From contig OZ223209.1 in NCBI GenBank assembly GCA_965140415.1, forward strand, positions 160,001-224,000: a DNA stretch of 64,000 bases, in the 5' to 3' direction. The stretch comes from Myxococcota bacterium. GTDB lineage: Bacteria > Myxococcota_A > SURF-8. Position 1 is the first letter of the stretch, and the number at the start of each line of letters is the position of its first letter. The notes under the pieces are model-generated. The model did not search any database, was not told where the DNA came from, and was given only the letters and a program-made list of their open reading frames with translations. Below, piece by piece: positions 34,885 through 58,450 of the stretch. Position numbers and translations under genes: made by a program.

Positions 34885-34951
34885 CTACATGTTCGCTGGG
34901 AAATCGCCACTTCCAATACCATTCCATATTCACGAAAAGATGGAGAGCGTG

Positions 34952-37141
34952 ATGCGTCATGCCTGCACGGCCTTTTTTTGTTTGGCTCTTCTATTGTGGC
35001 TGTTCGGTTGTGCCGAAACGGAGAATCCCGCGAACTCCGGCGACTTGGATACGTTGGATACTGCGGAAACGTTGGAGCAGGACTCTCGAATTGAAGACGG
35101 CGACAATGATTTAGACGATAGCGAGGGAAATCCTACTGATGGCGATGGCGAATTAGAAGAAGAGGGATACCCCTTTTATCATGATCTCCCATCTGCCATG
35201 CAAATCGAATCCAAGACCTTGAGTGTACCTCCCATGAATTTATATCATGAATGCACGGGAACGATCTCGGGTCAGTTGTTGGTGGTCGAAGACGGTGCGT
35301 ATTCCGTAATATATAACACGGAAACGATGATCCCATATTCGGCTGTCAGAAGTTCGGGGACTTCTCTATTAAGTGGAACATCTCTTTTTCAGATTAAATA
35401 TACAGAGCTTAAGCGTTGGGATCTGCAACAACCCACAAACCCGATTTTACAATATCGCTCCCCAAATAACAGTAGAATCATTTCTACAACAAGCATAAAC
35501 AACACATTATTTTATTGCAATAAGCAAGGCGTAAATCGCTGGAGCGGAGAAGACAATCCGCAGCTCATTGTCCCAACAGATAGCTGTAGTCAGTTGTTTG
35601 GCATCGGAGAGGATATCCTCCTAGTAGTAAATGACGAAAGCGACAACGAAAATGAAACCTCAATAGAAACAGCAGTGGAAACCCGCATCGATGCCTATCG
35701 GCTCGGGGGGATCTCGCTATATACCCCGATGTGGTCTTTTTCTTTTTCTCATAAAAGATCAATCAAAGCTTATGCATCCGATACGCGGCTGGTATTCAGT
35801 TCATCCTACTTCGCTGGAACTCCGCTTCTATATCTGATCGATCTGAGCCAACCGGACCAGGCCCCTGAATCGGTTCAAACGATCATGCCCGAAACATTTA
35901 GTACGTGGTCTTGCGAGATTCAATCTTTGTTGGTACGTGGCAATTACGTTTTAGCGCATGTCGTAGTGAATGATAACGATAGTTACCTGTACAAAATCGA
36001 TGTGACATCGACTTCGGCTCCAAGCATTGAATTGGCGGAATGCTATGAAGATTCATCCAATGATGGAAATGATGGTATCGGACACAATGGAAACGGTTGT
36101 TGGCAAGCCAATGCAGACAGTGGAGTCGTCAATCCTCACGGCCTATTTGTACATATGTGGAGTTGCAGTGGCGAAGGCGGCTGTCTGAGCGAATTAGATT
36201 TCTTAACTTTAGAGGAAAACGGGGAGATAAATCCAAATTATATCTTAGGCCACGATACAAAAATCGCCCCCGACGACATCGCCGTAGCTCAGGATCGTTA
36301 CTATTATCATTTCAGATTTTCAAACGATAAGCTGTTTGCTTATAACTCAGATACAGAGGTCTTCTCCGCATTGGATTTGGAAGAATCTGCTAAAAACATT
36401 GTGGGTCTTGGCGAACGGTTGTACATCCTTACCGACACCGGATTATATTCCCGTGCCGTTTTACCGGATGGCTCCTTGCAACCTCGTGAGACAATCTTTC
36501 AACCCGAGAATGTCGCTATTCAAAGATTGATCGTTTCGGATCGATACCTTGCCGTAGTTTGGGATACGGCAAGCGATCAAAGATTCAAATTTTTTGACAT
36601 CCACTCCGACGGAAGTTTATCGGAACTACCCGACATCTTGAAGCTTAATAAAAATGAGTATATTTTCATCCAGGGTTGTACAGCGGTAATTAAACATTTC
36701 AACAAACAGATTTCCATCAAACCACTGGTAGAAGGTTGTCATCCGACCGTCGATCACCTCTCACTGGAAGATATAGAAGAATTCAATAATCTAACAATTA
36801 GGCCTTGCTATGGATTGATTGTGACGAATTATGAATCGGTTTGTGATTCGTCTTATTCTTACACGACCAACATCCTCCGGATATTCGACTGGCAAGGTAA
36901 GTTCTTGCGTGAAATTCCTGCCAGCTATTGCGACACGGAGTATGAAGCCGTGATACGGCGCGGCAGCATAATATGTGCTGGAGGGTGGCTATTCGACACC
37001 ATATCAAAACGAGCGACAACCATAAGAGAATTACCGAACGGGCAACCGAGCTGGAAGTCGGGTTACAATATTAAAATCGTTGACGGCAACAACCTGTTTC
37101 AACTCGATCCGACCCCGACACATTACATACTTTCGGAATGA
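34952..37141 (+). CDS. hypothetical lipoprotein, probable beta-propeller body
   Basis: Lipobox LWLFGC, acidic DGD linker, beta-rich repeats (LYLIDLSQP, LYKIDVTS, LYILTDTGLY); GGAG RBS before ATG 34952. Confidence 0.65.
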   Translation: MRHACTAFFCLALLLWLFGCAETENPANSGDLDTLDTAETLEQDSRIEDGDNDLDDSEGNPTDGDGELEEEGYPFYHDLPSAMQIESKTLSVPPMNLYHECTGTISGQLLVVEDGAYSVIYNTETMIPYSAVRSSGTSLLSGTSLFQIKYTELKRWDLQQPTNPILQYRSPNNSRIISTTSINNTLFYCNKQGVNRWSGEDNPQLIVPTDSCSQLFGIGEDILLVVNDESDNENETSIETAVETRIDAYRLGGISLYTPMWSFSFSHKRSIKAYASDTRLVFSSSYFAGTPLLYLIDLSQPDQAPESVQTIMPETFSTWSCEIQSLLVRGNYVLAHVVVNDNDSYLYKIDVTSTSAPSIELAECYEDSSNDGNDGIGHNGNGCWQANADSGVVNPHGLFVHMWSCSGEGGCLSELDFLTLEENGEINPNYILGHDTKIAPDDIAVAQDRYYYHFRFSNDKLFAYNSDTEVFSALDLEESAKNIVGLGERLYILTDTGLYSRAVLPDGSLQPRETIFQPENVAIQRLIVSDRYLAVVWDTASDQRFKFFDIHSDGSLSELPDILKLNKNEYIFIQGCTAVIKHFNKQISIKPLVEGCHPTVDHLSLEDIEEFNNLTIRPCYGLIVTNYESVCDSSYSYTTNILRIFDWQGKFLREIPASYCDTEYEAVIRRGSIICAGGWLFDTISKRATTIRELPNGQPSWKSGYNIKIVDGNNLFQLDPTPTHYILSE

Positions 37142-43375: not shown

Positions 43376-43831
43376 TTAGCGATTTCGACCGTTTCCGCCA
43401 CCGCGGCCACCGCGACCGCCGCCCTTGCCCGCTCCGTCGGGTCGGCAGACCAGATCGTTACCCATGCGGGCCTGTTGACAGGAGCCGCTGCGCTCACCGC
43501 GCCGAGTTGTGGCGGTGCAAGTATCTCCCTGCGATTTTCCGACGCAAGCAGCTACGGCTTGTTCGTGTTGCTGTTTCCGTTCTTCCGGAACGCAGACCAT
43601 CCTGCTTTCATTATTGGGTTGTTCACAGGTTCCGCTCAAGTCGCCGCGTCGACAGCTAAAGGAACAGGCATCGCCCTGCTGAGCGCCATCACAGGCGGTG
43701 TACGCTGCTTCAGGCGGACCCTGACGACCTTTGCCGCGTCCCTGACCGCGTCCCTGGGCGACTGCAAGCGAAGAAACGAACAGAACCAAAATTGCCAATG
43801 AGAACAGGATCATGTTTTTCTTGTTGAACAT
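43376..43831 (-). CDS. small secreted protein with two tandem Cys domains and Gly/Arg-rich tails
   Basis: Signal peptide (AVA), GQGRG repeats, AC.G..QGD.C....RRG..SG.C.Q.......VC.P twice. Confidence 0.75.
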   Translation of the reverse strand: MFNKKNMILFSLAILVLFVSSLAVAQGRGQGRGKGRQGPPEAAYTACDGAQQGDACSFSCRRGDLSGTCEQPNNESRMVCVPEERKQQHEQAVAACVGKSQGDTCTATTRRGERSGSCQQARMGNDLVCRPDGAGKGGGRGGRGGGNGRNR

Positions 43832-44051: not shown

Positions 44052-46325
44052 TCAGTGCTTATCGGCTAATGGATCGGGAAGATAATGTGCCCCCGGAGGG
44101 AGTTCATCGGTTCCCAGTGCGCGAATGGCGGCCTTGAAGCGGTCGCCGCGCTGGTAGTATTTCTCCCCGGCTGGGCTGGCGCTGGCCGGGCTGAAGAGCA
44201 CATCCATGCCGGGTTGAGCCTGCATAACTGCCTGCCGGGCGGCGTCTTCCAGATCGGTGCAAGATTGAATCGGAATCGGTGACGATAGCTTGTTGAGTGC
44301 TTCACTTAGTGCTTCGGTGATTTCTCCAAAGAGGAACGCTTTGCTTACCCGCCCGGAACAGGCCTGGGCTGTTTCGTCGAAACAAAGCCCCTTGTTGTTG
44401 CCGCCTGCAACCAGTAAGATGGGATTGTTCAACGATTGCAAGGCCTTGATAGTGGCATCGGGATTCGTACCCTTGCTGTCGTCGTAGTAATCCACCCCAT
44501 TCATACGGTGGAAGCGTTCGACGCGATACACCACTCCGGCAAAAGATCGCAGCGTTTCTTCGATCACGTCAGGCGACACTCCAAGTAAAAACGCCGCCAG
44601 ACCCGAGGCCATCAGGTTTTCCAGGTTGTGTTCGCCCACGAAACGACGCTGCTGCATAAAGTCTTCGATGCACAGCACGTCCCGGTCGGGATGGCGCATA
44701 ACCAGATCCGTTCCTTGCAGAAACGCACCCCGCTCCAGTTCCCTGCGAGTCGAAAAGGGGACCATCGCCGCCGCACAACCTTTGGGTAGTAACTCATTGA
44801 CGATCGGTTCGCTTTCGATGTTGTAAATCGCGTAGCTGTTCTTTTCCAACAGGGTGAAGATGCGCCCCTTGGCGGCGATGTACCCGGCCATATCGCCGTG
44901 CCGGTCCAGATGATCCGGCGTGATGTTCAGCAGTATAGATGCCTGTACCGGCAAGCTGGACAATTCCTCCAACTGAAAGCTGCTTAACTCCATGGCGCAC
45001 ACGCTGTTGTCATTGAGATCGGGCAGAATGTCCAATACCGGACGACCGATATTGCCCATCAGGTGGGCGTCCTCGCCGATGTCACCGGCGAACAACCGCT
45101 GGGTTAGAATCGTCGTGGTGGTTTTTCCATTGGTGCCGCTGATGGCCACCTTGCGTCCCTTGGCATGTTGCAGAAAGAGTTCGACGTCGCTCATGATCGG
45201 CACGCCCATACGCCGCGTCTGTCGGAAAGCGGGCAGATCGGCGGGAACGCCGGGCGAGCGGAAAACGACGTCCGCCCGGTGCAGATCGTCCAGGTACTGT
45301 TCACCGGTAACGGCCTGTGCCGATAAATCCGGGAAATCCTCTTTCAGTTTCTCCGCTACAACGGGGCGACTGTCACGCACGCGGATCAGCGAAGGGCGGT
45401 GCCTGCGCAGATGGCGCAACAGGCTTTGTCCGGTCACGCCGTAGCCGACGACATCCACGGCTTTTCCCGATAAATCGTTGCGAATATCCACCTGGCGAAC
45501 GCGCAGGCGACCATTCACGCCCATGCGCGCCAGTTGTGCGGAAATCGCCTGCTCCGATCCGTTCGTAAAAACCACCTGTTCATCGCTTGCCGCGCGGTTA
45601 TCCGCATCCGCCCGCAGATTCCGAATATCCAAATAAGCACGCGCGAACTGCGCCAACGACAAGGCCGGATTGATCAGACGCACCCCGTTTCCCAAAACCT
45701 GCCGGATCTCTTCTGCCAGTCGTGGAAAATGCGTACAACCCAGAAAAACGGCATCCGGCGGCTGTTCCATAAAAGGCGCCAGGTCTTTTTGCAGCGTTTC
45801 CATTCGCAGACGCCGTTCCAAATCCGCATCGGTTTCCGGGCGTTCCACCCGCTGCACCCATTCCGGCGCGGCCAGAGTATGCAGCTTGCAATTGGGTAGT
45901 AACTCCGCTGCCAGCTTCTGATAAAGTCCGCTGTCGATCGTCAGGCGGGTTCCGGTAATCAGCAGGCGCGAAGGTGCAGTAAAAGTCAATTCCGAAAGCG
46001 CTTCGGGCGAGGCGATCGGGAGCACGTCTACGCCGTGTTTGTGCAAACGTTGCCGCAGTTCGTGAGAGGCGGGTAGGGAACGAAAGACGGTGGAGGCGGT
46101 GTGGCAGGCGATGATCAGCAGTTTCACCCGCCGCATCAGCATGCCTTCCACGATATCCGATAAAAATTGTTCGATCTGCGCCGCAGACTTTTCCCCGTAG
46201 GGATTGTTCACCGTATCGGCAAAGTAATACATTTTTTCGTTAGGCAATAGGCGGTTCAAATGCTCCAGCATTTCCAACCCGCCGACACCGGAATCGAATA
46301 CGCCAATACGGTAGTTGCGGTTCAT
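44052..46325 (-). CDS. murI-murD: fused glutamate racemase (MurI) / UDP-MurNAc-L-Ala:D-Glu ligase (MurD)
   Basis: N-terminal IGVFDSGVGGL, PYGEKS, IACHTAS, LGCTHFP; C-terminal GYGVTG, SPGVP, GTNGKTTT, ELSSFQLE, NITPDHLDRH, DDSKGTN, SPASAS...RG; one uninterrupted 757-aa ORF. Confidence 0.93.
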   Translation of the reverse strand: MNRNYRIGVFDSGVGGLEMLEHLNRLLPNEKMYYFADTVNNPYGEKSAAQIEQFLSDIVEGMLMRRVKLLIIACHTASTVFRSLPASHELRQRLHKHGVDVLPIASPEALSELTFTAPSRLLITGTRLTIDSGLYQKLAAELLPNCKLHTLAAPEWVQRVERPETDADLERRLRMETLQKDLAPFMEQPPDAVFLGCTHFPRLAEEIRQVLGNGVRLINPALSLAQFARAYLDIRNLRADADNRAASDEQVVFTNGSEQAISAQLARMGVNGRLRVRQVDIRNDLSGKAVDVVGYGVTGQSLLRHLRRHRPSLIRVRDSRPVVAEKLKEDFPDLSAQAVTGEQYLDDLHRADVVFRSPGVPADLPAFRQTRRMGVPIMSDVELFLQHAKGRKVAISGTNGKTTTTILTQRLFAGDIGEDAHLMGNIGRPVLDILPDLNDNSVCAMELSSFQLEELSSLPVQASILLNITPDHLDRHGDMAGYIAAKGRIFTLLEKNSYAIYNIESEPIVNELLPKGCAAAMVPFSTRRELERGAFLQGTDLVMRHPDRDVLCIEDFMQQRRFVGEHNLENLMASGLAAFLLGVSPDVIEETLRSFAGVVYRVERFHRMNGVDYYDDSKGTNPDATIKALQSLNNPILLVAGGNNKGLCFDETAQACSGRVSKAFLFGEITEALSEALNKLSSPIPIQSCTDLEDAARQAVMQAQPGMDVLFSPASASPAGEKYYQRGDRFKAAIRALGTDELPPGAHYLPDPLADKH

Positions 46326-48895
46326 TTCTGGGTCTTTCGTTCGTTCTCGATGCGCACGCTCTCACCGAGTCGCTCGATAATGGATTTCAGCTCGGGATTC
46401 GTGGAATCATAGCGTTGTGCGCGGCTGTAATAGCGCAGGGCGGCGCGGGTGTTACCCTGTTTTTCGTAGGTTTTTGCGATTCGTTCGTGAATGCCTGGAT
46501 TCTTGGGAGAATAGACCAGGGCGCGGTTGTATTCTCCACGTGCCAGATCGTACTTGCTGCGGGCCATATCGATATCGCCCGAAAGCAGGTAAGCTTCCAA
46601 CTTGCGGCTGGGATGCCGCCAGGCCAGACCGTGAATCTTCACGGCCATCTGGTTGGCCTCGTCGTAGCGCTTCGCCGCCAAATAGGTGCGTCCCTGCAAT
46701 AACCACAGCCCGATATTGACCGGTTGCAGCGTTTCCGCTTTGGCGTACCAGTTCAATGCTTCGTCAAAACTTCTTTGCGTCTGCGCGATTTCACCCTTGA
46801 GCATGTATCCCTGGTAATTGGCAGGGAACTTCGCGATCAATCGGCCTGCGGTTTCGCTTGCGGCGTCTATTCCGCCTTCTTCCAGATGGATTTTTCCCAT
46901 CAGATACAAGGTGGCGGGAGCGTGTTCGGTGTTGGTATCGACCCAGTTGGACAGCAGCATTTTTGCGGTGTCCGATTCTTCACGATCCACCAGAAAACGA
47001 GCCAGTTGCGGAATGCGTCCGTTGTCTTTTGGCACGGTGGCCGCCAGATCTTTCGGTTGCAGACCGCTTTTCAACATCTGACTCCAGGTGTCATCCAGCG
47101 GTTTTTGTTCCAGGGTTTTATTCTGGGCGGAGGCAAATGCCGCGCGCGCGTTGTCGAAATCGCCAACCAGTGCATAGGCTTTGCCGCTCCATCGATCCAC
47201 CATCGGATCGGTGGGGCTTAACAACCCGGCCTTTTCAAGATGCAGCATCTTGTTCGGCATTTCGGCAAACGATCCGGCCCGGTAACGCTCGCTGGCCAGA
47301 ATGCGCAGGTAGGCATCTGTCGGGTGGCGTCCCACTTCCGCAGAGAGCACACGCTCGAATTGGCTTTCGCTTAGCGAGCGGTCGTATACCGCCCGGTGCA
47401 AACGTTGTTGGCTTTGCGCGATGCGGTGATGCAGCCACAGCGCCTCACCGGCCAGCACCGTTACCACGGCCATGATCCACACGGAAATCAGCACCCAGCG
47501 CGGCAATTTCCGGGGTTTGATCCAACTGTTTTTACTGCGTTGCGCCGCGCGCGTAGTCAAGGCTCCGATTAAAAACACCAGTGGCATGGCTACGGCGAAC
47601 GTGCTCAGGTTGAAATCGACGTAATTGTGGATCGCCGCTACGAAAATCGCGCAGAGACCGGCCATTTCCATCCGTTTTAAATGGCGCGTTTTGAAGATCA
47701 GAAAGAGCCCGAATGCAAAACCGAAGATGATCGCCGCTCCCACCGGAAAGCCGCTTTCCACCACGATCTGCAACAGGATGTTTTCCGGGTAGTCGTAGCG
47801 CAAGTCATCTTTGACCGTTTTGTAAATCGGATAGGCCACCTTGAAGGATTCCGCCCCGATGCCTGCAACCGGAAAGGTCTTGGCCATCTGCCAGGCATCC
47901 TGCCAGATTTCCGGGCGCGTGCTGGCGGCCTGGTCATCACTGGAAAATTCATCGGCGAGTTGTTGCAATGCCAGCCAACTGGAAAGCACGATTACCAGCG
48001 CTACCGCCACCTGCACCCAAAGCAGTTCTTTTTTTCCGCGGCTGCGCCTCCAGAGCAGGTAGGTAAACAACAACTGCCCGGCTAAAAAGGCAATGATTCC
48101 ACCTTTGGAGAGCGTCATGAATACTGCAGTGGAAGTCACGACCGCCATGGCCAGAATGAACAAGCGTCGCTGACGCCCCTCTTCTTTAAGGGCGAAGCCG
48201 ATCTGAATCGGTACGCTCATGCCCAGAAAGGCCGCCAGATGGTTGGCGTTGATAAACGTCGAGAAAAAGAAGGGCGGTTGCTGTTCGAAAGGAATCAGCC
48301 CGTAAATTTTGGAAATTCCCAGCGCTTTCTGGATGAACCCGATCATGGCCAGTGCAAAGCCGGTAATGGCGATCGTTTTCAATACCGGATTGAGGCGTTC
48401 GTCATTATTGAACAGGTTCGCCGCAATCAGGTAGACCATTAACAATGAGAAGAAGCCGCTCAAACCGAACCAGGTTTCCGCCGGATCGAGTGAGAGCGTG
48501 CGCCATTGTCCCTGGCCATACAAGCCCAGACCATCCAACGTTACGTGATACAGGCGATCCGTTTCCGGCGAGAATACGGAAAGCAGCCAGGGCGGCAGCG
48601 GTGTCACCTGCAACAGGGTAAATAGCGCTCCCGCAAATAACACCACCCATAAGCCGGTGATATTCGTACGTTTCTGATTGATCAGGGCATCCATTACAAA
48701 CAGGGTGGATAAGCCCAGGATAATCACCCGTGCAATCAGCATCGGGTAGGGGCGCGAGGTCGTGGTTCCAAGCATTAACGGCAGCAGAGGAATCAGAACG
48801 ACAAATCCCCACAGCACCCATTTCTCCAGTACGCCGGGAGCGGGCTTGGGTAATCGTCTGTACCGCACGGGGCGGCGCTCGTTCATGCTTTCCAT
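46322..48895 (-). CDS. O-antigen ligase/Wzy_C-family membrane protein with C-terminal TPRs
   Basis: About 12 TM segments, STFINANH, TLSKGG, RPEIWQDA..FPVAGIG, ENILLQ..VESG, IHNYVDFN; TPR repeats at the C-terminus. Confidence 0.85.
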   Translation of the reverse strand: MESMNERRPVRYRRLPKPAPGVLEKWVLWGFVVLIPLLPLMLGTTTSRPYPMLIARVIILGLSTLFVMDALINQKRTNITGLWVVLFAGALFTLLQVTPLPPWLLSVFSPETDRLYHVTLDGLGLYGQGQWRTLSLDPAETWFGLSGFFSLLMVYLIAANLFNNDERLNPVLKTIAITGFALAMIGFIQKALGISKIYGLIPFEQQPPFFFSTFINANHLAAFLGMSVPIQIGFALKEEGRQRRLFILAMAVVTSTAVFMTLSKGGIIAFLAGQLLFTYLLWRRSRGKKELLWVQVAVALVIVLSSWLALQQLADEFSSDDQAASTRPEIWQDAWQMAKTFPVAGIGAESFKVAYPIYKTVKDDLRYDYPENILLQIVVESGFPVGAAIIFGFAFGLFLIFKTRHLKRMEMAGLCAIFVAAIHNYVDFNLSTFAVAMPLVFLIGALTTRAAQRSKNSWIKPRKLPRWVLISVWIMAVVTVLAGEALWLHHRIAQSQQRLHRAVYDRSLSESQFERVLSAEVGRHPTDAYLRILASERYRAGSFAEMPNKMLHLEKAGLLSPTDPMVDRWSGKAYALVGDFDNARAAFASAQNKTLEQKPLDDTWSQMLKSGLQPKDLAATVPKDNGRIPQLARFLVDREESDTAKMLLSNWVDTNTEHAPATLYLMGKIHLEEGGIDAASETAGRLIAKFPANYQGYMLKGEIAQTQRSFDEALNWYAKAETLQPVNIGLWLLQGRTYLAAKRYDEANQMAVKIHGLAWRHPSRKLEAYLLSGDIDMARSKYDLARGEYNRALVYSPKNPGIHERIAKTYEKQGNTRAALRYYSRAQRYDSTNPELKSIIERLGESVRIENERKTQK

Positions 48896-48941
48896 TGCGA
48901 ACCGAACCTTCCTCTGTATCGGGCGTTGATGCCCCACAGCA

Positions 48942-49934
48942 TTAGACCGGTGGCCATTTCCCTTCTGCCATCAATTCCGCAACGCGCGGTGCATGATAGG
49001 TCAAAATCAAATCCGCTCCCGCTCTGCGGATGCCGATCAGGTATTCATAAATGCTGCGATCCCGGTCGAGCCAGCCGTTTTGCGCTGCCGCTTCGATCAT
49101 GGCGTATTCTCCGCTGACGGCATAGGCGGCTACCGGGGTTTCCACCCAATCGCGAATCTTGGCGATGACATCCAAATAGGCCAGCGCCGGTTTGACCATC
49201 ACGATATCCGCGCCTTCCTCGATGTCCTGATCCACTTCCTGCACCGCCTGGCGCAGATTGGCCGGGTCCATCTGGTGGGAGCGCCGATCGCCGAAAGCGG
49301 GTGCGGAACCGGCGGCATCGCGAAACGGTCCGTAAAAGGCGGAGGCGTATTTTGCCGAATAGGCCATGATCGGAATGTGAGAATAGCCTGACATATCAAG
49401 CGCTTCGCGAATTGCTCCGACGCGACCGTCCATCATGTCGCTGGGAGCGATTATATCCGCTCCGGCTTCGGCCAATGTCACCGCCGCCTGCGCCAATAAC
49501 GGCAGGGTGGCGTCGTTGTCGATGTATTCTCCCGCCAGCAAACCGCAGTGACCGTGCGAGGTGTATTCGCATAAACAGACATCGACCACTACCAATAGCG
49601 GCAGTCCTTCTTTTTTCAGCGCACGCACCGCCTGCTGCACGATGCCGTCTTGCGCATATGCGCCGGTGCCCTGCGGATCTTTATGCTCGGGAATACCGAA
49701 TAAAATGATGGCCTTGATGCCCAACTCGGAGATCCGGCGCGCCTCCGGCAGCAGCATGTCGATGGATAACTGGTACTGGCCAGGCATAGAGGGAATCTCG
49801 TTTTTGACGCCTTGCCCGTAATGCACGAACATCGGGTAAATCAGGTCATCCAGCGACAAACGGGTTTCGCGCACCAGATCCCGCAACAATCCCTGTTCGC
49901 GCAAGCGCCGCATGCGGACATCGGGAAAACTCAT
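48942..49934 (-). CDS. hemB: porphobilinogen synthase (Zn-type)
   Basis: RMRRLR, DVCLCEYTSHGHCG, APSDMMDGR, YSAKYASAFYGPFRDA, MVKPA, SGEYAM. Confidence 0.97.
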   Translation of the reverse strand: MSFPDVRMRRLREQGLLRDLVRETRLSLDDLIYPMFVHYGQGVKNEIPSMPGQYQLSIDMLLPEARRISELGIKAIILFGIPEHKDPQGTGAYAQDGIVQQAVRALKKEGLPLLVVVDVCLCEYTSHGHCGLLAGEYIDNDATLPLLAQAAVTLAEAGADIIAPSDMMDGRVGAIREALDMSGYSHIPIMAYSAKYASAFYGPFRDAAGSAPAFGDRRSHQMDPANLRQAVQEVDQDIEEGADIVMVKPALAYLDVIAKIRDWVETPVAAYAVSGEYAMIEAAAQNGWLDRDRSIYEYLIGIRRAGADLILTYHAPRVAELMAEGKWPPV

Positions 49935-49973
49935 ATCAACTCCTGTTTTCGTCTCACACCCGATTGGGTGACG

Positions 49974-50663
49974 CTACATCTCGAATCGATAGCCGACCGC
50001 GCGCACCGTCAGGAAATGACGCGGACGTTCCGGTTCTTCCTCGAACAGCTTGCGCAGTCGCAGCACGAAATTATCCACCGTACGTTCCGTGGGGGCGGTG
50101 TCCATCCCCCAGACTTCTTCAAGGATATCCACACGTTTCAGGCTGTGTCCCGCCATACGCACGAACATGCCCAACAGCCGCGCCTCTTTTTCCGACAGGC
50201 GCACCTGGCCTTCGACGGTTTGTGCTTCGCGTGTATCCAGATTCGCCGTAAAGCGACCGATTTTTACCACTTGATTGCTGGGGACTTCCCGCTGAGCCTG
50301 TCCGCGGCGGATCATCGCCCGCACCCGCGCCAGAAACTCAGCCATATCAAAGGGTTTGGTCAGGTAATCATCCGCGCCCGAATCCAAGCCCTGCACTTTG
50401 GCCTGGGTTTCGGAGCGAGCTGTGAGCATCAGAACGGGGGTGAAGATCTCTTTGGCGCGCAGTTCGGAAACCACTTCGAATCCGTTTTTTCCGGGTAGCA
50501 TCACATCCAGCACGACGGCGTCGAACGCTTCGTTTTCAATCGCCGGCAGCGCCTTGTCTCCGGCCATTACCCAGCTTGCCCGGTAGCCTTCGCGCTCCAG
50601 GTTCAGCTTGATCATCTCTCCGATCAGCTCGTCATCTTCGACCAGCAGTATCCGTTCCGCCAT
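49974..50663 (-). CDS. OmpR/PhoB-family response regulator
   Basis: ILLVEDD, LDVMLPG, LMLTAR, GADDYLTKPF, wHTH ERTVDNFVLRLRK...TVRAVGYRF; start ATG 50663. Confidence 0.95.
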   Translation of the reverse strand: MAERILLVEDDELIGEMIKLNLEREGYRASWVMAGDKALPAIENEAFDAVVLDVMLPGKNGFEVVSELRAKEIFTPVLMLTARSETQAKVQGLDSGADDYLTKPFDMAEFLARVRAMIRRGQAQREVPSNQVVKIGRFTANLDTREAQTVEGQVRLSEKEARLLGMFVRMAGHSLKRVDILEEVWGMDTAPTERTVDNFVLRLRKLFEEEPERPRHFLTVRAVGYRFEM

Positions 50664-50665
50664 GC

Positions 50666-51823
50666 CTACGCCACTTTCTTCAAATGCAGAATCATGCGCG
50701 TGCCTTTGCCGGGTCCGTTGCTTTGCGCGATCAGTTCCCCGCCGAAAGAACGCAGCAGTTGCCGAGCGATATATAAACCCAACCCGGAACCCTTGATTTC
50801 CCCGATGCGCTCGCTGGGACCGCGCCACAACTTGTGAAACATCGCCTTGCGTTCGGCGCGACTCAGTCCCACCCCGTTGTCTTCCACCACAATCATGCCC
50901 CATTCGTCCGTTTCCTGCAAGATAACCCGCACTTCGGGTACATCGGAGGAATACTTGAAGGCGTTGTCCAGCAGGTTTTCCATAATGTGGCGCATCAAAT
51001 CCGGATCGGCCCAGACCGAAATCTCATCCGCACAATCCACCACGACTTCGGCGCGTTTGTCGCTGAACAACCGGTTGCGGCGTTCCACGAATTCCCGCGT
51101 TCCTTCAATCAGTTGCAATGGACGCGGCTGCGAATTGAAAATTCCTTGCTGAATGCGATTGGCGAGCAGCACGTTTTCGATCAGGCTTTGTAAATGATTG
51201 GTTTCGATCAATCCCAATCGGGCGTAACGAGCTTGTTTTTCCTCTGGAATTCCTCCACTGGAGAAGGTTTCCAACAGCGCCTTGACTCCCGCGACCGGCG
51301 TTTTCAGTTCATGGCTGACCGCCTGGAAAAAGAGTTCCACATTGCGCCGCGCCCGACGCTCGGAAAGCCACAGAAAATACAGACCCAGGCAGAGAATCAC
51401 GATTAGAATGATCAGCAGTGATCCTTCACCGGCCACCATCACCATGCGGCTGCGGTGCTTGACTTTCTGCTCTTTCAATACCTGCGGCTTGACCTGTAGC
51501 AAGAGTTCGGGGAAATTCGGTTGTAATGGCAAGGCGGCGATATCGTGCGCCTGCGAATCGGAAACGATTTCAAATATCGAATCCGGTTCTATAACGGGTG
51601 GATTGTGTTTGTCGCGCAGACCCAGACCATGAGCGACCATCAGCATCTGCAATTGTTGCCGCTCCATGCTCAACGTATAAACGGTTTGCATCTGCTGCCA
51701 TTGCAGAATCACCCACCAGATCCCCAGGCTGGTTAACGCCAGCACGGCCACTAACAGCAGTGGATGCAGCGGGCGCAAGCCTCGTCCGTGCCAGCTTCGC
51801 GTTTTCGTTTGACCGCTTGCCAT
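50666..51823 (-). CDS. sensor histidine kinase (2 TM, HisKA-HATPase)
   Basis: SHELKTP H-box, NLLDNAFKY, VEDNGVG, KGSGLGL. Confidence 0.95.
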   Translation of the reverse strand: MASGQTKTRSWHGRGLRPLHPLLLVAVLALTSLGIWWVILQWQQMQTVYTLSMERQQLQMLMVAHGLGLRDKHNPPVIEPDSIFEIVSDSQAHDIAALPLQPNFPELLLQVKPQVLKEQKVKHRSRMVMVAGEGSLLIILIVILCLGLYFLWLSERRARRNVELFFQAVSHELKTPVAGVKALLETFSSGGIPEEKQARYARLGLIETNHLQSLIENVLLANRIQQGIFNSQPRPLQLIEGTREFVERRNRLFSDKRAEVVVDCADEISVWADPDLMRHIMENLLDNAFKYSSDVPEVRVILQETDEWGMIVVEDNGVGLSRAERKAMFHKLWRGPSERIGEIKGSGLGLYIARQLLRSFGGELIAQSNGPGKGTRMILHLKKVA

Positions 51824-51830
51824 GGTTTTC

Positions 51831-53120
51831 CTATTCGGCGCTTAGAACGTCCGCCCAGGCTTCTGCCAGACCCTCGATATGTTCGACGCTATGGGCGGTG
51901 GATAAAAACGCCACTTCCCAAGCGGAGGGAGCCAGGTAATAACCCCGGTCCAGCATGGCGCGATGATGCCGGTTAAAGCGTGCAATCGCGCGCTCGGAGA
52001 CCTTTTCGGGCTGGCGCGGAAGTTCTCCCGTGTCCAGATACAGCCAGCCGATGGAGCCCACGCGCCGACTCTGGAAATCGCCGAAGCGTTCCTTCAATCC
52101 GGCGAAGGCGGCATCCTGTGCCTGTCCGAGTTTTTCCAAGCTGTCGTAGGCATCGGTCTGCTTCAATACGTCCAACGTCGCACAGCCTGCGGCCATGGCC
52201 ACGGGATTGCCGGAAAGCGTTCCGGCTTGATACACCTTGCCGTTGGGTGCGAATAACTCCATCAACGCCGCCGAACCGAGTAGCGCGCCGACCGGCATAC
52301 CGCCGCCCACGATCTTTCCAAGCGTTACCAGATCCGGGAGAATGCCCGTTTTGTGCATGTAGCCGCCGTAGTGCAGCCGGAAGCCCGAAATAACTTCATC
52401 GAAGATCAACAGCGCACCATGCTGCTTCGTGATGTCTCGCAAAAACTGCAAGTACTCGGGACGCTGCACGAGCAGGCCGCTGTTTGCCGGAAGCGGTTCC
52501 AGAATCACCGCTGCGATCTGATCCGGGTATTTTGCGAAGAGTTCGCGTACCGCCTCTTCATCGTCCAACGGAACAACCAGGGTTTCTCCGGCAATGGCCG
52601 CCGGGACGCCGTCGGAGGAGGCGATCGGCTGGGTGATCAAACCGCTGCCTGCTTTGACCAGCAGGTGATCGGCATGGCCGTGATAGCAGCCGGAAAACTT
52701 GATGATTTTCCCGCGTGCCGTCGCACCGCGCGCCAGCCGCACCGCCGACATGACAGCCTCGGTACCACTGCTGACGAAGCGTACTCGTTCGAATTCCGGG
52801 AAGGCATCCAATACGCGCTCGGCCAGATCGATTTCCCGCTTGCAGCAGGCTCCGAAGCTTAGCCCGTCCTGTAATGCCGCCGTGGCCGCTTCAACCACCG
52901 CCGGGTGCGCATGACCCAGAATCAACGGACCCCAGGAACCGCAGAAATCCACGTATTCATTGCCGTCGGCATCTGTGACTTTTGCTCCCGCACCTTTTTC
53001 GAAATAAACCGGATGGCCGCCGACGCTGCCGAAGGCGCGTACCGGCGAATTGACGCCGCCGGGCATCAAGTTCACGGCTCGTTCGTAATACTCACTCGAT
53101 TGACGATATCGATCACTCAT
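51831..53120 (-). CDS. hemL: glutamate-1-semialdehyde 2,1-aminomutase
   Basis: MPGGVNSPVRAF, SWGPLILGH, SGTEAVMSA, GCYHGHAD, IFDEVISGFR, LGKIVGGGMP, YQAGTLSGNP. Confidence 0.97.
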   Translation of the reverse strand: MSDRYRQSSEYYERAVNLMPGGVNSPVRAFGSVGGHPVYFEKGAGAKVTDADGNEYVDFCGSWGPLILGHAHPAVVEAATAALQDGLSFGACCKREIDLAERVLDAFPEFERVRFVSSGTEAVMSAVRLARGATARGKIIKFSGCYHGHADHLLVKAGSGLITQPIASSDGVPAAIAGETLVVPLDDEEAVRELFAKYPDQIAAVILEPLPANSGLLVQRPEYLQFLRDITKQHGALLIFDEVISGFRLHYGGYMHKTGILPDLVTLGKIVGGGMPVGALLGSAALMELFAPNGKVYQAGTLSGNPVAMAAGCATLDVLKQTDAYDSLEKLGQAQDAAFAGLKERFGDFQSRRVGSIGWLYLDTGELPRQPEKVSERAIARFNRHHRAMLDRGYYLAPSAWEVAFLSTAHSVEHIEGLAEAWADVLSAE

Positions 53121-53222
53121 CTTTGGCTCCGTCTTCTCTTTCACGGTTCAACAATTACCGAAATCACCATACTTGGATAAGGAAAGCTTTACCAGTGCTT
53201 TCCCGTCTTTTCAGGGTTCATC

Positions 53223-53939
53223 TCACTTCACGAGGTCGCATAGGGTTTCAGCCAGTACCGCATTTTCGGTGGAAGTGGAAACCACCGGTTGCAGGCCCTG
53301 CGAACGAAGCCAGTTTCCGGTGGTGCTGCCGATGGCAAGCAGTTTCTTTTCATGGGCAAACGGATTGGCTTGTAAAAAGCGTTTGGCGGCACTGGGACTG
53401 GCCAAAAGCACCGCATCGAATTTTTCGGTAACGACCGGCTTGGGTGGTTCCCGGTTTTCGTAGACTGTCAACGGATAAATCGTATGTCCCAATTCGGACA
53501 ATTTCGACGAGGCGCTGTCACGACTGTGATCGCCGCGCACGACCAGAACTCGCGATGCCAGCCCCAGTTTCGGGATCATGCGCTCGGCCAGATTCGCTCC
53601 GGTGGCGGGATCTGCCACGACATCCGGCGGCCAGCCAACGTCTTGCAGTCGTCGCGCCGTGCCGGGACCGACCGCGCCGATCAAACGAGGGCGATCCTGC
53701 GTGCGCCGCTCCGCCTGGCTTTGCAACCAACTGAAGAAGCCGCCAACGCCGTTTTTGCTGGCGAACAGGGCCGCATCCAATCGGTTCAATTCCGGCAGCG
53801 CCAGTACTTCCTCTTCCGAAGGAGCGACGAAGGCGATTTGCAGACAGGGCGCTTGAATGACGCGGATGCCGCGTTTGCCAAGCAATCCGGCTAATGGCGC
53901 ATTGTCCGCCGCTTCGCGTGTCAGGACAACGGTTGGCAC
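53223..53939 (-). CDS. hemD: uroporphyrinogen-III synthase
   Basis: VVLTRE, FASKNGV, AVGPGTA, VYEN, ASPSAA, AIGSTT; position after hemC. Confidence 0.85.
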   Translation of the reverse strand: MPTVVLTREAADNAPLAGLLGKRGIRVIQAPCLQIAFVAPSEEEVLALPELNRLDAALFASKNGVGGFFSWLQSQAERRTQDRPRLIGAVGPGTARRLQDVGWPPDVVADPATGANLAERMIPKLGLASRVLVVRGDHSRDSASSKLSELGHTIYPLTVYENREPPKPVVTEKFDAVLLASPSAAKRFLQANPFAHEKKLLAIGSTTGNWLRSQGLQPVVSTSTENAVLAETLCDLVK

Positions 53940-54880
53940 AGGCTTCCCTCCATGATTGCGGTTTCTTCGCCGCCTTTCAATACACGTTCCAATTCCTCAT
54001 AGGCGCGCGCGGTGGCTTCTTCCATTGTGGAATTTTCCACATACGCCGCCCGCCAGTTGCCGTGTTCGTCTTCATGACCCAGCCGGATACAGAAACCGCC
54101 TTTATCCAGTTTTTGTGCCCAGGCTCCGAAGGCCGCATGACAGCCGCCCTCGAAACGCGCCAATAGTTCACGCTCCGCCATCACTGCCTGCCAGGCGGCA
54201 TCGTCGTGAAAATCGCATAAGGCCTGCTTTACGCGCTCGTCGCCCAGGCGTAGTTCCACGCCCATTACCGCCTGTCCGGGTGCAGGAATCCAGATCGACG
54301 GATTCAATTCATAGACGTGCAACCCTTGCAGATCCAATTGCAGCCGATCCAGCCCGGCGCGCGCCAAAATGATGGCGTCGTATTCGCCGTTACGTAGTTT
54401 ATCGACGCGGGTGGGCACGTTGCCGCGCAGCATGGCGGCTTTTAAATGCGGTGCAAAGCGCCGCAATAGCGACTGCCGCCGCAGGCTTGTTGCACCGACT
54501 ACGCCGCCCGGTTTCACCGGCAAAGGCTGTTGTTCATCAAAAGATGCAGGATGCACCAGCAGCACATCGGCCACCGCCGCTCTTTTAGACACCGCCCCAA
54601 GTTCCAGGCCCTCGGGCAGTTCGGTGGGAAGATCCTTCAGGCTGTGAACGGCCAGATCCACGTTGCCCGCCAGAAGCTCGTCTTCGATTTCTTTCGTGAA
54701 AAAGCCCTTGTCCGCCTGTCCCTGTAACGCGCGATCCAGAAAGCGGTCGCCTGCCGTTTTGATGACCGTGATTTCGGCCCCGCCGTGAATGACTCCGGCG
54801 ACGTGATTGGATTGCCACAGGGCAAGCTGGCTGCCGCGCGATCCGATGATAAAAGTTTTATTGCCGTTAGGACTGCTCAT
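53921..54880 (-). CDS. hemC: hydroxymethylbilane synthase (porphobilinogen deaminase)
   Basis: GSRGSQLALWQ, KGFFTKEIE, AVHSLKDLPT, SLRR, RGNVPTR, PAPGQ, GGCH. Confidence 0.96.
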   Translation of the reverse strand: MSSPNGNKTFIIGSRGSQLALWQSNHVAGVIHGGAEITVIKTAGDRFLDRALQGQADKGFFTKEIEDELLAGNVDLAVHSLKDLPTELPEGLELGAVSKRAAVADVLLVHPASFDEQQPLPVKPGGVVGATSLRRQSLLRRFAPHLKAAMLRGNVPTRVDKLRNGEYDAIILARAGLDRLQLDLQGLHVYELNPSIWIPAPGQAVMGVELRLGDERVKQALCDFHDDAAWQAVMAERELLARFEGGCHAAFGAWAQKLDKGGFCIRLGHEDEHGNWRAAYVENSTMEEATARAYEELERVLKGGEETAIMEGSLCQPLS

Positions 54881-56099
54881 CGGCGTTCTCCGTGATTTCG
54901 TGAATGGAATTGAAAATGGAATTGGTGTATTCGCGGATCAGGCCGCGCAAACGGAAGGCCAGCCGGTTTCGATCCTCCTGGCTCAGTTGGGGCAGTTCCG
55001 TATCCAGCAATTGCGGAATGACTTCCTTGATGTAGCGCTCGTGCTGATTTTGCGTGGTTTCCAGCACTTTGACCAGGTTTCGTTCCCGGCAGAAGCGGGT
55101 GAATTCGCGCATGGCTTCGCGGATCACGCGTCGCATGTGGCGCATCCCTTCCGAATTCCCCGCCGGAATGACCAGCAGATCCTGCAAGGTATCCAAATCC
55201 ACGCGCACGAGCTTGTCCAATTCGGATAAGGCTGTCTCGCTCTGTACGGGAATGCCGATATCCACGATGGTCAACTCCCGCCCTTCGCGCGGCAGGATAT
55301 GACGTGCTCCCAATAGCGGCTTTTCCGAACTGGTACACAAAATCGCAGCGTCGGCCTGTTGTAAAAGCTCCGGCAAGCGCTCCAAAGGCTGAACCTTATC
55401 GCGCTGCAAAAAGGTGATCGTGCGATTGACACGCTCTGTCTGCCAGTTCGTGCGAGCCTTCAAACTCTGGTTGACCTGCCTGCCAATCGCTCCCGTGCCG
55501 ACCACGACTACCGAGTAAGGTTGCTTGGGATCGTGTCGTTCGGTTAGAAAGCGCACCGCGGCATCGTGTACGCCGCGCAGCGTCGTATCGCCCAACTGGG
55601 TTTGCGCCGCTTCACGCGCCACGCGCCCCAACAAAGGACTGAGCCCGTTCAGAATGACGGAGGAGCGTTGCCTCTGCTTGGCGATATTGAACGCACAGTT
55701 CAACTGCGTCGCGATCTGCCGTTCTCCGATTACGAAAGACTCGATTCCGCTGACCACGCGCAGCAGGTGTTCCACCGCCGCAATCCCCGTAAACACGTAT
55801 GGATCGGGGATTTTTCCCTCGCCGTCGTCCTTTTTCAGGCGGCGGATGAACTGCGCTTTTAAAATCTGCGCTGCCCACTGTGGCGTGCTGGAAGAAACGA
55901 TCCATTCGTTGCGATTGCAGGTATCCAGTACCACCAGCCCGCGTGCGATGCCGGAATCTTCCAGGCGGCGGTGCAGTTCGTCGGCCTGATCCGGCTTTGT
56001 GACCAGGCGCGAGCGCATCCCCGCGCCTGCAATGCGGAAGTCGTAGCCGATTACGGCCAGGGGAATTTCGATACAATCAAACGTTGCGTTGTGATTCAT
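54867..56099 (-). CDS. hemA: glutamyl-tRNA reductase
   Basis: TCNRNE (catalytic Cys), HLLRVVSGIESFVIGERQI, GTGAIG, NRT, DIGIP. Confidence 0.9.
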   Translation of the reverse strand: MNHNATFDCIEIPLAVIGYDFRIAGAGMRSRLVTKPDQADELHRRLEDSGIARGLVVLDTCNRNEWIVSSSTPQWAAQILKAQFIRRLKKDDGEGKIPDPYVFTGIAAVEHLLRVVSGIESFVIGERQIATQLNCAFNIAKQRQRSSVILNGLSPLLGRVAREAAQTQLGDTTLRGVHDAAVRFLTERHDPKQPYSVVVVGTGAIGRQVNQSLKARTNWQTERVNRTITFLQRDKVQPLERLPELLQQADAAILCTSSEKPLLGARHILPREGRELTIVDIGIPVQSETALSELDKLVRVDLDTLQDLLVIPAGNSEGMRHMRRVIREAMREFTRFCRERNLVKVLETTQNQHERYIKEVIPQLLDTELPQLSQEDRNRLAFRLRGLIREYTNSIFNSIHEITENADEQS

Positions 56100-56104
56100 C
56101 TCAG

Positions 56105-58443: not shown

Positions 58444-58450
58444 GACCCAC

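Follow-up and report, generated by a model that had tools for sequence, protein, structure and literature searches.

Glutamate racemase (MurI) makes D-glutamate, and MurD joins this D-Glu to UDP-MurNAc-L-Ala. As a rule, the supply of D-Glu is linked to its use either loosely, as in E. coli through allosteric activation of MurI, or not at all. The locus described here, which is located in a 64-kb stretch of DNA from a Myxococcota bacterium (the whole stretch of 64,000 nucleotides that was analysed is called the window), raises the question of whether a single polypeptide carries both steps and, if so, whether it serves ordinary peptidoglycan synthesis. An earlier note on this DNA had described a 757-aa ORF in which a complete MurI is joined directly to a complete MurD, with the boundary near 45480. 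The ORF listing and the translation agree on an uninterrupted frame of 757 aa with an ATG start (44052..46325, minus strand), and all four motif readings of the note could be located in the translation: ACHTAS at residues 73-78, GCTHFP at 196-201, YRVE at 600-603, and SPASASPAGEKYY at 712-724. The boundary is also close to the position that had been given, with MurI ending at 45477 and MurD starting at 45476 on the minus strand. The features referred to below are as follows.

44052..46325, minus strand: whole fused gene murI-murD, 757 aa plus stop codon, a single ORF without internal stop
45477..46325, minus strand: MurI (glutamate racemase) half, residues 1-283, from Asp_Glu_race, TIGR00067 and structure alignment
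46104-46106, minus strand: catalytic Cys74 of the MurI half
45735-45737, minus strand: catalytic Cys197 of the MurI half
45459..45524, minus strand: junction, residues 268-289 (MGVNGRLRVRQVDIRNDLSGKA), from invariant columns and the predicted structure
44109..45476, minus strand: MurD ligase half, residues 284-739, from TIGR01087, the E. coli MurD alignment and the residue table
45114-45137, minus strand: P-loop GTNGKTTT of the MurD half
44910-44915, minus strand: D471-H472 of the MurD half
44868-44870, minus strand: K486, the carbamyl-lysine position of the MurD half
44466-44474, minus strand: K618-T620 of the MurD half
44391-44393, minus strand: K645 of the MurD half
44517..44528, minus strand: YRVE, residues 600-603, with Tyr in place of the hinge-loop His (E. 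coli His301)
44145..44192, minus strand: SPASASPAGEKYYQRG, residues 712-727, remodelled loop after the D-Glu-binding Ser717 (E. coli Ser415)
44055..44108, minus strand: clade-specific C-terminal tail, residues 740-757 (DELPPGAHYLPDPLADKH), 18 aa
46322..48937, minus strand: upstream gene (context), Wzy_C (O-antigen-ligase-like) membrane domain plus TPR repeats, from Pfam

Four Pfam domains were found above their gathering scores: Asp_Glu_race at residues 17-227, the UDP-binding N-domain MurD-like_N (PF21799) at 290-378, Mur_ligase_M (PF08245) at 395-577, and Mur_ligase_C (PF02875) at 601-714. The combination of Asp_Glu_race with Mur_ligase_M and Mur_ligase_C, for which the earlier note had suggested a search, is thus present in one protein. 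Both NCBIfam equivalog cut-offs are passed as well (TIGR00067 glut_race, 163.1 bits versus a cut-off of 146.65; TIGR01087 murD, 337.7 bits versus 211.95, covering profile positions 2-440 of 441), in line with the view that both enzymes are complete.

A fused ORF might also arise when an assembly or sequencing error masks a stop codon or a frameshift between neighbouring murI and murD genes, a danger that the note itself had pointed out. We regard the chance of this as practically negligible. At least 15 other protein clusters, found on other contigs and in other sources, match the fused size (744-765 aa; 45-61% identical across 98-100% of the query) and have an alignable junction, and two further independent fusions exist (P0123, 718 aa; P0124, 761 aa). 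The fusion is thus not an assembly error. The junction has no spacer, and all clade members share R277, D280, R282, G287 and K288. The fused set consists of 16 proteins (query included), identified by their racemase and Mur ligase Pfam domains among the 120 matches listed, which are the best 120 of 3,680 MurD-side matches. In the MurD tree, these 16 proteins group together with a support of 100, and the MurI trees likewise recover them as a single clade (supports 99 and 100). Within the clade, the MurI halves share 48.6% and the MurD halves 53.9% pairwise identity on average (120 pairs; r = 0.82); both halves are similarly constrained and are co-diverging. When all fused racemase halves, including those of the two more distant fusions, were forced into one clade, the resulting tree was rejected (log-likelihood 27.9 lower, p-AU 0.008), and the fusion has thus arisen more than once. 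Such independent recurrence would be expected if joining these consecutive steps makes functional sense.

Judged from these sequence comparisons, the MurI-MurD fusion is rare and is kept as a single gene in a small bacterial clade. A profile search with the 16 fused sequences, which used generic MurD patterns only, led to 80 murD loci, all of them stand-alone, and a related-locus search with the window's protein alone returned no relative. In the ESM Atlas, which is restricted to clusters of at least 50 members and would thus miss a rare fusion, stand-alone MurD clusters only were seen among the 8 listed of 30 matches. No description of a MurI-MurD fusion was found in the searchable literature, so that the worry of the earlier note that the architecture might be common and already described did not materialise.

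The MurI half aligns end to end with the solved MurI structures 3hfr, 2gzm and 2jfn, and its predicted model has a target-normalised TM-score of up to 0.90 to MurI structures. C74, C197, H199 and P42-Y43-G44 are kept in 16/16 clade members and D11-S12 in 15/16, the exception (P0018) being N-terminally truncated; every full-length member (15/15) retains DSG, PYG, C74, E161, C197, T198 and H199. The deviation of ACNTA to ACHTA, to which the earlier note had drawn attention, is present in the window's protein but does not characterise the clade: the His occurs in two of the 16 members (the window's protein and P0005) and in 9 of 120 stand-alone MurIs. TIGR00067 scores in the clade are 145-165 bits, compared to 210-299 bits for four stand-alone MurIs. 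Among six other members tested, three are above the cut-off of 146.65 (149.9, 160.1 and 164.7), two are just below (144.9 and 146.4), and for the truncated P0018 no match was returned at E 1e-40. A kinship of the clade's racemase half with the activator-dependent MurIs of enterobacteria was considered and dropped, because the support for this join was only 35 and it was flagged as a meeting of long branches.

Residues 1-456 of the MurD half align with positions 3-439 of E. coli MurD, and the predicted model of this half has a target-normalised TM-score of 0.73 to liganded E. coli MurD (2uag); the predicted model of the whole fusion has a mean pLDDT of 87.1 and a pTM of 0.70. Residues were mapped to E. 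coli MurD by pairwise alignment. The E. coli residues K115, N138, E157, H183, the carbamyl-lysine K198, R302 and D317, which we take to be the ATP-binding and catalytic ones, correspond to K401, N425, E446, H472, K486, R601 and D616, and the D-Glu contacts T321, K348 and S415 correspond to T620, K645 and S717. All of these, as well as K618, are kept in 16/16 clade members. According to one review, the choice between D-Glu and L-Glu is set by D182, K348 and K319 of E. coli MurD, and the L-Glu ligase MurD2 has E197/R358 at the D182/K348 positions (PMC8788868). In the clade, D-Glu-type residues occupy all three of these positions (D471, K645 and K618 in 16/16), and the MurD2-type Glu and Arg are absent. 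By alignment, all first-shell D-Glu contacts and all D/L determinants are canonical.

We thus favour, with a probability of roughly 0.7, that the fusion is a bifunctional glutamate racemase / UDP-MurNAc-L-Ala:D-glutamate ligase with a canonical role. The N-terminal half would convert L-Glu to D-Glu by the usual two-cysteine mechanism, and the C-terminal half would add D-Glu to UDP-MurNAc-L-Ala in an ATP-driven reaction, which would yield the dipeptide peptidoglycan precursor. Racemase and ligase activities would be held at a 1:1 ratio in one place. Both would be canonical, their product would feed peptidoglycan, and the clade-specific changes described below may adapt the ligase to work beside the racemase. 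The bifunctional enzyme proposed by the earlier note is supported at the sequence level, with both halves being full-length and above the equivalog cut-offs and the checked catalytic and substrate residues being invariant in the clade. We also lean, with somewhat less confidence, towards a relocation from the dcw cluster, with the fusion serving as the principal or sole MurD and MurI of the genome.

The clade departs from ordinary MurDs at several positions. His301 of E. coli MurD is part of the hinge loop Thr294-Glu304 (PMC4816537). Tyr600 occupies this position in 16/16 clade members, whereas His is found in 2/2 of the other fusions and in 328/329 stand-alone MurDs. The remodelled loop after Ser717 has a one-residue deletion relative to E. 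coli MurD. It has Pro718 (16/16), at the position of E. coli Leu416, where 319/329 stand-alone MurDs have F/W/Y and 325/329 have F/W/Y/L; Leu416 is within about 4 Å of the D-Glu moiety, according to PMC3527612. The loop also carries Gly720 (16/16) and Tyr724 (13/16, versus Glu in 236/329 stand-alone MurDs). The hinge His and the residue following S415 are to be seen as conserved features, not as proven catalytic requirements. A tail of at least 15 aa is present in 16/16 clade members, in 0/2 other fusions and in 8/329 stand-alone MurDs, and DPLA in the last 15 aa is found in 16/16, 0/2 and 0/329, respectively, with D751-P752-L753-A754 being invariant in the clade. A strand is predicted at residues 274-278 of the junction, and pLDDT is 74-81 in the blocks that cover residues 251-290. 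TIGR01087 scores are 272-344 bits in the clade versus 397-460 bits for six stand-alone MurDs. The clade is unusually diverged, with equivalog scores that are 50-190 bits below those of ordinary enzymes. In a FastTree tree, its MurD half is set apart from the MurDs of Myxococcota, Thermodesulfobacteriota and Bdellovibrionota, and its stem is long, at 1.06 changes per column compared to a median end branch of 0.55. In the tree of racemases, the MurI half has a long stem branch as well. The claim that both halves deviate from consensus is borne out, with YRxE and the remodelled loop in 16/16 and low equivalog scores.

The earlier note had found no dcw genes adjacent to the fusion. This extends to the 64-kb window, where no dcw gene, no second Mur ligase and no second racemase were detected by Pfam and NCBIfam among the 41 ORFs (at least 90 aa) that were picked. 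Stand-alone murD loci have at least one dcw neighbour in 65/65 cases, with MraY upstream in 56/65 and FtsW downstream in 54/63; a dcw location between mraY and ftsW is typical for murD, not defining. No stand-alone MurD or MurI from the window's own contig is among the best 120 of 3,680 MurD-side or the best 120 of 328 MurI-side matches. The location outside dcw fits a relocation and an extra copy equally well. The stop codon of the upstream Wzy_C/TPR gene overlaps the ATG of the fusion by 4 bases (ATGA). Homologs of this gene on size-matched contigs were seen only for the fused homologs P0005, P0006 and P0007, which are the closest relatives. For the remaining 12 of these 15 fused homologs, among them those with contigs of 1.15, 5.18 and 0.85 Mb, no such homolog was detected. 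hemB is found in the same tight gene string as the fusion. Between 43000 and 50600, neither promoter-like sites (2, versus 4.3 +/- 2.1 in shuffles) nor terminator-like sites (13, versus 8.9 +/- 3.2) exceed chance.

Might the fusion instead be a specialised second copy, MurI-MurD-like but with an altered amino-acid or acceptor preference, beside a canonical dcw murD? Such a copy could act on a modified wall or, together with the Wzy_C/TPR protein, on a D-Glu-bearing surface polymer. The non-dcw setting, when compared to the dcw neighbours of all 65 stand-alone loci, would agree with this, and so would the 4-base overlap with the Wzy_C/TPR gene, a pairing that recurs in three relatives. The long stems and low equivalog scores of both halves point the same way, as do the exchange of the hinge His for Tyr and the remodelled D-Glu-site loop in 16/16, and the fact that the MurD half does not group with MurDs of the phyla suggested by the organism labels. 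We nevertheless consider a second copy unlikely. D-Glu contacts and D/L determinants are canonical (PMC8788868; PMC3527612) and the UDP-binding N-domain is present. With no matched homolog for 12/15 fused homologs, the Wzy_C/TPR link is not clade-wide, and the presence of hemB in the same gene string means that adjacency here need not reflect a shared role. It would also be more parsimonious to move and fuse single copies than to duplicate two genes and fuse them. The alternative offered by the earlier note, a second ligase that serves a non-peptidoglycan polymer, is disfavoured by the D-Glu-type residues in 16/16, and the link to the neighbouring Wzy_C/TPR gene can be followed in the closest relatives only.

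That one half is catalytically dead and has become a regulatory or scaffold domain, for example a racemase-like sensor of D-Glu or of the precursor on an active MurD, seems improbable to us, even less likely than a second copy. Both catalytic Cys, DSG, PYG, E161 and T198-H199 are retained in 15/15 full-length members and all MurD catalytic residues in 16/16, and the two halves are similarly conserved. Such a sensor would be in accord with the MurI half being at or just under the equivalog cut-off throughout the clade (144.9-164.7 versus 146.65 bits). It would also be in accord with the E. coli enzyme, where the substrate of MurD acts as an activator of MurI (PMC3037491, citing Ho et al. 1995), so that racemase folds can bind that ligand.

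Within the preferred reading of a bifunctional racemase-ligase, it is conceivable, though we would not expect it, that the two enzymes have co-evolved into a coupled machine. The junction, the Tyr, the loop and the DPLA tail would then gate the racemase by the open and closed states of the ligase, or D-Glu would be passed directly between the sites. In that case, D-Glu would be made only with UDP-MurNAc-L-Ala bound and would never be released; this would be a built-in substitute for the way in which UDP-MurNAc-L-Ala allosterically activates MurI in E. coli. A two-chain complex prediction for the MurD half and the MurI half, which was run without controls, gave a score of 0.00 in both runs and speaks neither for nor against an interface.

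One natural polypeptide with both steps would be a direct system to probe the channelling of D-Glu and the matching of racemase activity to demand. For annotation, it is relevant that genomes with the fusion will appear to be devoid of a glutamate racemase in metabolic reconstructions. The hinge and loop changes of the clade mark near-invariant positions of MurD, which is relevant to work on MurD and MurI inhibitors.

With stand-alone MurIs (TIGR00067; 3hfr, 2gzm, 2jfn), the fusion shares the fold, the two catalytic Cys, DSGxGG, PYG and GCTH(F/Y)P. It differs in that the C-terminus of the racemase continues straight into MurD, that the racemase half of the window's protein scores barely above the equivalog cut-off, and that a His follows Cys74. 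With stand-alone and E. coli MurD, it shares the three domains, the P-loop, the Mg and acyl-phosphate residues and the carbamyl-lysine position, as well as the counterparts of the E. coli D-Glu contacts (T321, K348, S415) and determinants (D182, K319). It differs from these by the N-terminal racemase, the Tyr for His301, the remodelled loop after Ser415, the 18-aa DPLA-bearing tail and a gene location outside any dcw cluster, and the window's protein scores 60-120 bits lower than six ordinary stand-alone MurDs. P0123 and P0124 have the same domain order as the window's clade, likewise without a spacer. Unlike the clade, they have the canonical MurD hinge His and loop and lack the tail, they score like ordinary enzymes (TIGR01087, 391-396 bits; TIGR00067, 208-228 bits), and their racemase halves fall outside the clade.

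Other fused peptidoglycan-precursor enzymes are MurB/MurC of Verrucomicrobium (PMC4803751) and MurF'-Alr of Phocaeicola (PMC13726279); the MurI/MurD pair is not mentioned in the accessible parts of these two papers. Curated NCBIfam bifunctional models cover MurE/MurF (PRK11929), MurC/Ddl (PRK14573) and MurF/Alr (PRK11930). The window's protein is far below their cut-offs (71.5 versus 1023, 27.5 versus 1015, and 17.5 versus 804, respectively), and no model for a MurI/MurD pair was matched in the NCBIfam scan of this protein. Like MurE/MurF, MurC/Ddl, MurF/Alr and MurB/MurC, the protein described here is a fusion within one pathway, but the pair is a different one, MurI with MurD. A parallel in kind is MurF/Alr, where an amino-acid racemase is also joined to a Mur ligase. 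MurI-MurD is a new pair on this short list, and one which arose more than once. In Xanthomonas, MurD2 adds L-Glu, which MurL then epimerises on the nucleotide; for MurL, PMC8788868 states that no conserved domain is known. In both MurD2/MurL and the fusion, the stereochemistry of Glu is tied to the MurD step, and no separate racemase gene has to supply free D-Glu. They differ at the D182/K348 positions, where MurD2 has Glu and Arg and the window's protein has Asp471 and Lys645, and, in contrast to MurL, the window's protein carries a true MurI-type racemase domain.

The gene at 44052-46325 (-) forms one uninterrupted reading frame: 757 codons, starting with ATG and devoid of internal stop codons (ORF listing and translation). 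Its product carries these Pfam domains:

residues 17-227, fused protein, Asp/Glu racemase domain
residues 290-378, fused protein, MurD-like_N
residues 395-577, fused protein, Mur_ligase_M
residues 601-714, fused protein, Mur_ligase_C

In an NCBIfam scan, it passes the equivalog models for glutamate racemase (TIGR00067, 163.1 bits vs. a cut-off of 146.65) and for MurD (TIGR01087, 337.7 bits vs. 211.95, with profile positions 2-440 of 441 covered). Both halves can be aligned over their full length to solved structures from their own families. An AlphaFold2 model of the fused protein (16 homologs as input) has a mean pLDDT of 87.1 and a pTM of 0.70. According to Foldseek, its ligase part resembles E. 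coli MurD at a target-normalised TM-score of 0.73, and its racemase part MurI structures at up to 0.90; among the matches listed, no PDB chain covers both parts. With one ORF, both equivalogs passed, and all Pfam domains present, the in-frame fusion of MurI to MurD proposed in the earlier note stands, and the motifs quoted there were all found where it had placed them. By the tests run, the predicted protein is a member of both families; the hinge histidine and the canonical loop after the D-Glu-binding serine are the conserved MurD features which it lacks.

When 5.8 billion protein clusters were searched, the fused protein had 3,680 matches. Among the best 120 of these 3,680 are 16 fusions (including the query) of 744-765 aa with racemase and Mur ligase Pfam domains, which show 45-61% identity to the query over 98-100% of its length and are referred to as the clade. 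The next match after this set is a stand-alone MurD of 470 aa (40% identity over 61% of the query). Because the junction can be aligned in all 16 members, with no spacer and with R277, D280, R282, G287, and K288 invariant, a hidden stop codon or frameshift is ruled out as far as comparison can show, and with it the assembly error which the earlier note had considered. When 1.84 billion representatives (50% identity clusters) were searched exhaustively with a profile, the fused architecture occurred in four of the best 150 matches, which is a lower bound since a distant fusion could rank below the 150th. These are two representatives of the clade and two more distant MurI-MurD fusions, P0123 (718 aa) and P0124 (761 aa). 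The ESM Atlas, a collection of clusters with at least 50 members, had stand-alone MurD clusters only among the eight rows listed of 30 matches. Only two source names were displayed for clade members, and both call the protein MurD alone. Few entries have an organism label; a "Myxococcales bacterium" MAG is named for one fused homolog and for one homolog of the Wzy_C/TPR protein described below. This fusion of two well-known enzymes catalyzing consecutive steps is real, conserved, and rare; the racemase and Mur ligase domains expected from a Pfam scan were confirmed, while the worry that the architecture might be common was not.

Further multi-enzyme fusions which include MurD were seen in database proteins from outside the window (P0107, P0140, P0153). 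One chain of 1323 aa combines a Mur ligase, MraY, and MurD, and in the two others, of 912 aa and 941 aa, MurD is preceded by another full Mur ligase.

The following genes surround the fusion:

43376-43831 (-), predicted secreted protein, 151 aa, N-terminus hydrophobic, ends rich in Gly/Arg, two similar repeats which contain Cys
46322-48937 (-), protein of 871 aa, membrane domain of the Wzy_C type (O-antigen-ligase-like) followed by C-terminal TPR repeats (domain scan)
48942-60895 (-), nearly complete haem biosynthesis string: hemB, hemL, hemD, hemC, hemA, protoporphyrinogen-oxidase-like flavoprotein, hemH, hemN-like, hemE
49974-51823, OmpR-type two-component pair, which splits the haem string between hemB and hemL

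The ATG of the fusion overlaps the stop codon of the upstream Wzy_C/TPR gene by four bases; beyond that gene follow hemB and then most of the haem biosynthesis cluster. Downstream are the small secreted Cys-rich protein, for which no Pfam or NCBIfam match was obtained, and an RND efflux operon. Promoter-like or terminator-like signals around the fusion did not exceed shuffled expectation. No gene of the dcw cluster, which normally houses murD, is encoded in the 64-kb window, in agreement with the earlier note, which had reported none adjacent. Stand-alone murD was analyzed at 65 loci (80 fetched, minus 12 with short flanks and 3 left out to stay within a size limit): MraY is encoded upstream in 56/65 and FtsW downstream in 54/63, and at least one dcw gene adjoins murD in all 65.

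The Wzy_C/TPR family is small: among 5.8 billion clusters it has 23 matches, of which 10 show 40-50% identity. Three of these close homologs reside on contigs of exactly 2,372,178, 38,266, and 17,200 bp, lengths identical to those of the contigs with the fused homologs P0005, P0006, and P0007. In the case of the 12 other fused homologs, including those on contigs of 1.15, 5.18, and 0.85 Mb, no size-matched Wzy_C/TPR homolog was found. Because only P0005-P0007 pair up, the adjacency belongs to the nearest relatives of the window and not to the fusion as such. An additional homolog (P0399, 822 aa, 40% identity) is on a contig with the same length in bp as that of the window and looks like a paralog from the same genome.

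Elsewhere in the window, two large ORFs of 1025 aa (28428-31505, -) and 761 aa (34856-37141, +), without a Pfam family at E 1e-5, flank a PEGA-domain protein and a formylglycine-generating-enzyme-like protein. The regions 270-9994 and 61166-64000 carry genes of an anaerobic-metabolism type, which code for pyruvate:ferredoxin oxidoreductase (1235 aa), an indolepyruvate-oxidoreductase-like protein, phosphotransacylase- and acetate/butyrate-kinase-like proteins, two CoA-transferase subunits, the corrinoid activator RACo, and a CooC/NifH-like ATPase. A stretch of lower G+C (16001-24000, 0.49-0.53 vs. 0.55-0.59 elsewhere) encodes a T2SS/T4P-type ATPase of 793 aa, whose N-terminal extension is long, together with a T2SSF platform protein and a TPR protein of 974 aa.

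Functional residues were tabulated for the 16 clade members and the two other fusions together with 120 stand-alone MurIs (racemase) and 329 stand-alone MurDs (ligase; E. coli numbering via pairwise alignment). The catalytic roles of the E. coli MurD residues mapped onto the fusion are those given in the MurD structural literature. All 16 racemase halves retain the catalytic cysteines C74 and C197, along with H199, E161, and the PYG motif, and 15 retain the DSG motif, which is missing from the N-terminally truncated P0018. All 16 ligase halves keep the P-loop lysine K401 and (E. coli residues in parentheses) N425 (N138), E446 (E157), H472 (H183), K486 (K198, the carbamyl-lysine position), R601 (R302), D616 (D317), K618 (K319), T620 (T321), K645 (K348), and S717 (S415). 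Judged from these alignments, every residue which can be mapped to a known role is kept. The protein is thus probably bifunctional in the canonical sense, converting L-Glu into D-Glu and ligating the latter to UDP-MurNAc-L-Ala. Excerpts of PMC3527612 describe that the carboxylates of D-Glu-type ligands are bound in E. coli MurD by Ser415, Lys348, Thr321, and the amide of Phe422. MurD2, an L-Glu ligase from Xanthomonas, has Glu197/Arg358 where MurD has D182/K348, exchange of these two residues turns MurD2 to D-Glu, and K319T makes E. coli MurD accept L-Glu, according to a review of the alternative pathway in Xanthomonas (PMC8788868). All 16 clade members have Asp, Lys, and Lys at the positions of D182, K348, and K319; by these residues, the predicted enzyme is not a MurD2. 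Conservation is about the same in both halves (mean pairwise identity over 120 pairs 48.6% for the racemase and 53.9% for the ligase) and their divergences track one another (r = 0.82, 120 pairs), which argues against decay of one half.

The equivalent of E. coli His301 is Tyr in 16/16 clade members (Tyr600), while the two other fusions have His, as do 328/329 stand-alone MurDs. His301 sits in the hinge loop Thr294-Glu304, which governs rotation of the C-terminal domain and has Arg302 as a "molecular handle" (excerpts of PMC4816537). The loop after Ser415 has Pro in 16/16 members where 319/329 stand-alone MurDs carry an aromatic residue (Phe, Trp, or Tyr), Gly in 16/16 at the next-but-one position, a one-residue deletion in the alignment to E. 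coli MurD, and Tyr in 13/16 where 236/329 have Glu. P0197, a database protein from outside the window, is the sole stand-alone MurD of the 329 with Tyr at the hinge; because it retains the canonical loop SPSCASFDMF, the two changes are separable. Beyond the usual MurD end, there is a C-terminal tail of 18 residues with an invariant Asp-Pro-Leu-Ala. A tail of at least 15 residues occurs in 16/16 clade members, 0/2 other fusions, and 8/329 stand-alone MurDs; for DPLA near the C-terminal end the values are 16/16, 0/2, and 0/329. TIGR01087 scores are 272-344 bits for the clade, 391-396 for the other fusions, and 397-460 for six stand-alone MurDs; TIGR00067 scores are 145-165, 208-228, and 210-299 (four stand-alone MurIs), with two clade members just under the racemase cut-off. 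Compared to P0123 and P0124, the clade alone has Tyr600, the remodelled loop, the DPLA tail, and low scores. The earlier note had pointed to deviations from consensus; the hinge Tyr and the rebuilt loop prove to be clade-wide, while the ACHTA motif is of minor weight (His after the first catalytic Cys in 2/16 clade members and 9/120 stand-alone MurIs).

In the MurD-domain tree (135 rows, FastTree), the 16 members form one clade (support 100) and P0124 is sister to the stand-alone MurD P0032 (support 99). The clade is also one group in the racemase-domain trees (support 99 then 100), and P0123 is sister to the stand-alone MurI P0352 (FastTree, support 99). An AU test of racemase sequences under a mixture model (11 fused, omitting clade members P0006, P0007, P0010, P0013, P0014, P0017, and the truncated P0018; 33 stand-alone, being every fourth match plus five named ones) rejected the tree in which all fused forms are one group, its log-likelihood being lower by 27.9 (p-AU 0.008). 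For the racemase halves a single origin is thus rejected, and the fusion appears to have arisen more than once. On the ligase side, a single old fusion with later splits may apply, as all 18 fused forms and four stand-alone MurDs form one group (starred, support 97) in the MurD FastTree. Stem branches are long for both halves (1.06 changes per column for the ligase, 0.68 for the racemase).

We consider it probable, at about 0.6, that the fusion is a housekeeping enzyme, serving as the main or only MurD and MurI of the genome, and unlikely that it is a specialised second copy. No stand-alone MurD or MurI from the window's own contig is among the best 120 listed matches of the MurD-side and the MurI-side search. 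In the FastTree, the ligase half is placed apart from the MurDs of Myxococcota, Thermodesulfobacteriota, and Bdellovibrionota, a position which fits a paralog or transfer as well as fast evolution. We infer that the clade-wide changes may have adapted the moving parts of the ligase to a permanently attached racemase; a changed role would leave identical facts.

The MurI-MurD fusion is undescribed in the literature searched, which comprised about 8.1 million PMC papers and 0.36 million bioRxiv preprints: no paper names such a fusion, nor is one described in the listed titles or abstract openings of 13 papers which combine glutamate racemase and MurD with fusion and of 12 among 24 which combine them with bifunctionality. 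The pair is not mentioned in the excerpts of PMC13726279, PMC4803751, PMC2650404, and PMC8142540. The concern that the architecture is already described is not borne out within that literature. That E. coli MurI is activated by the substrate of MurD, a premise of the earlier note, is supported by an excerpt of PMC3037491 (citing Ho et al. 1995). Beyond a routine gene fusion, the clade has changes at nearly invariant MurD positions and a conserved tail, which open a possible coupling between the making and the use of D-Glu to direct tests. In the scan, the protein matched no NCBIfam entry for the pair MurI/MurD, and the fusion differs from the curated bifunctional Mur families MurE/MurF, MurC/Ddl, and MurF/Alr, scoring far below their model cut-offs.
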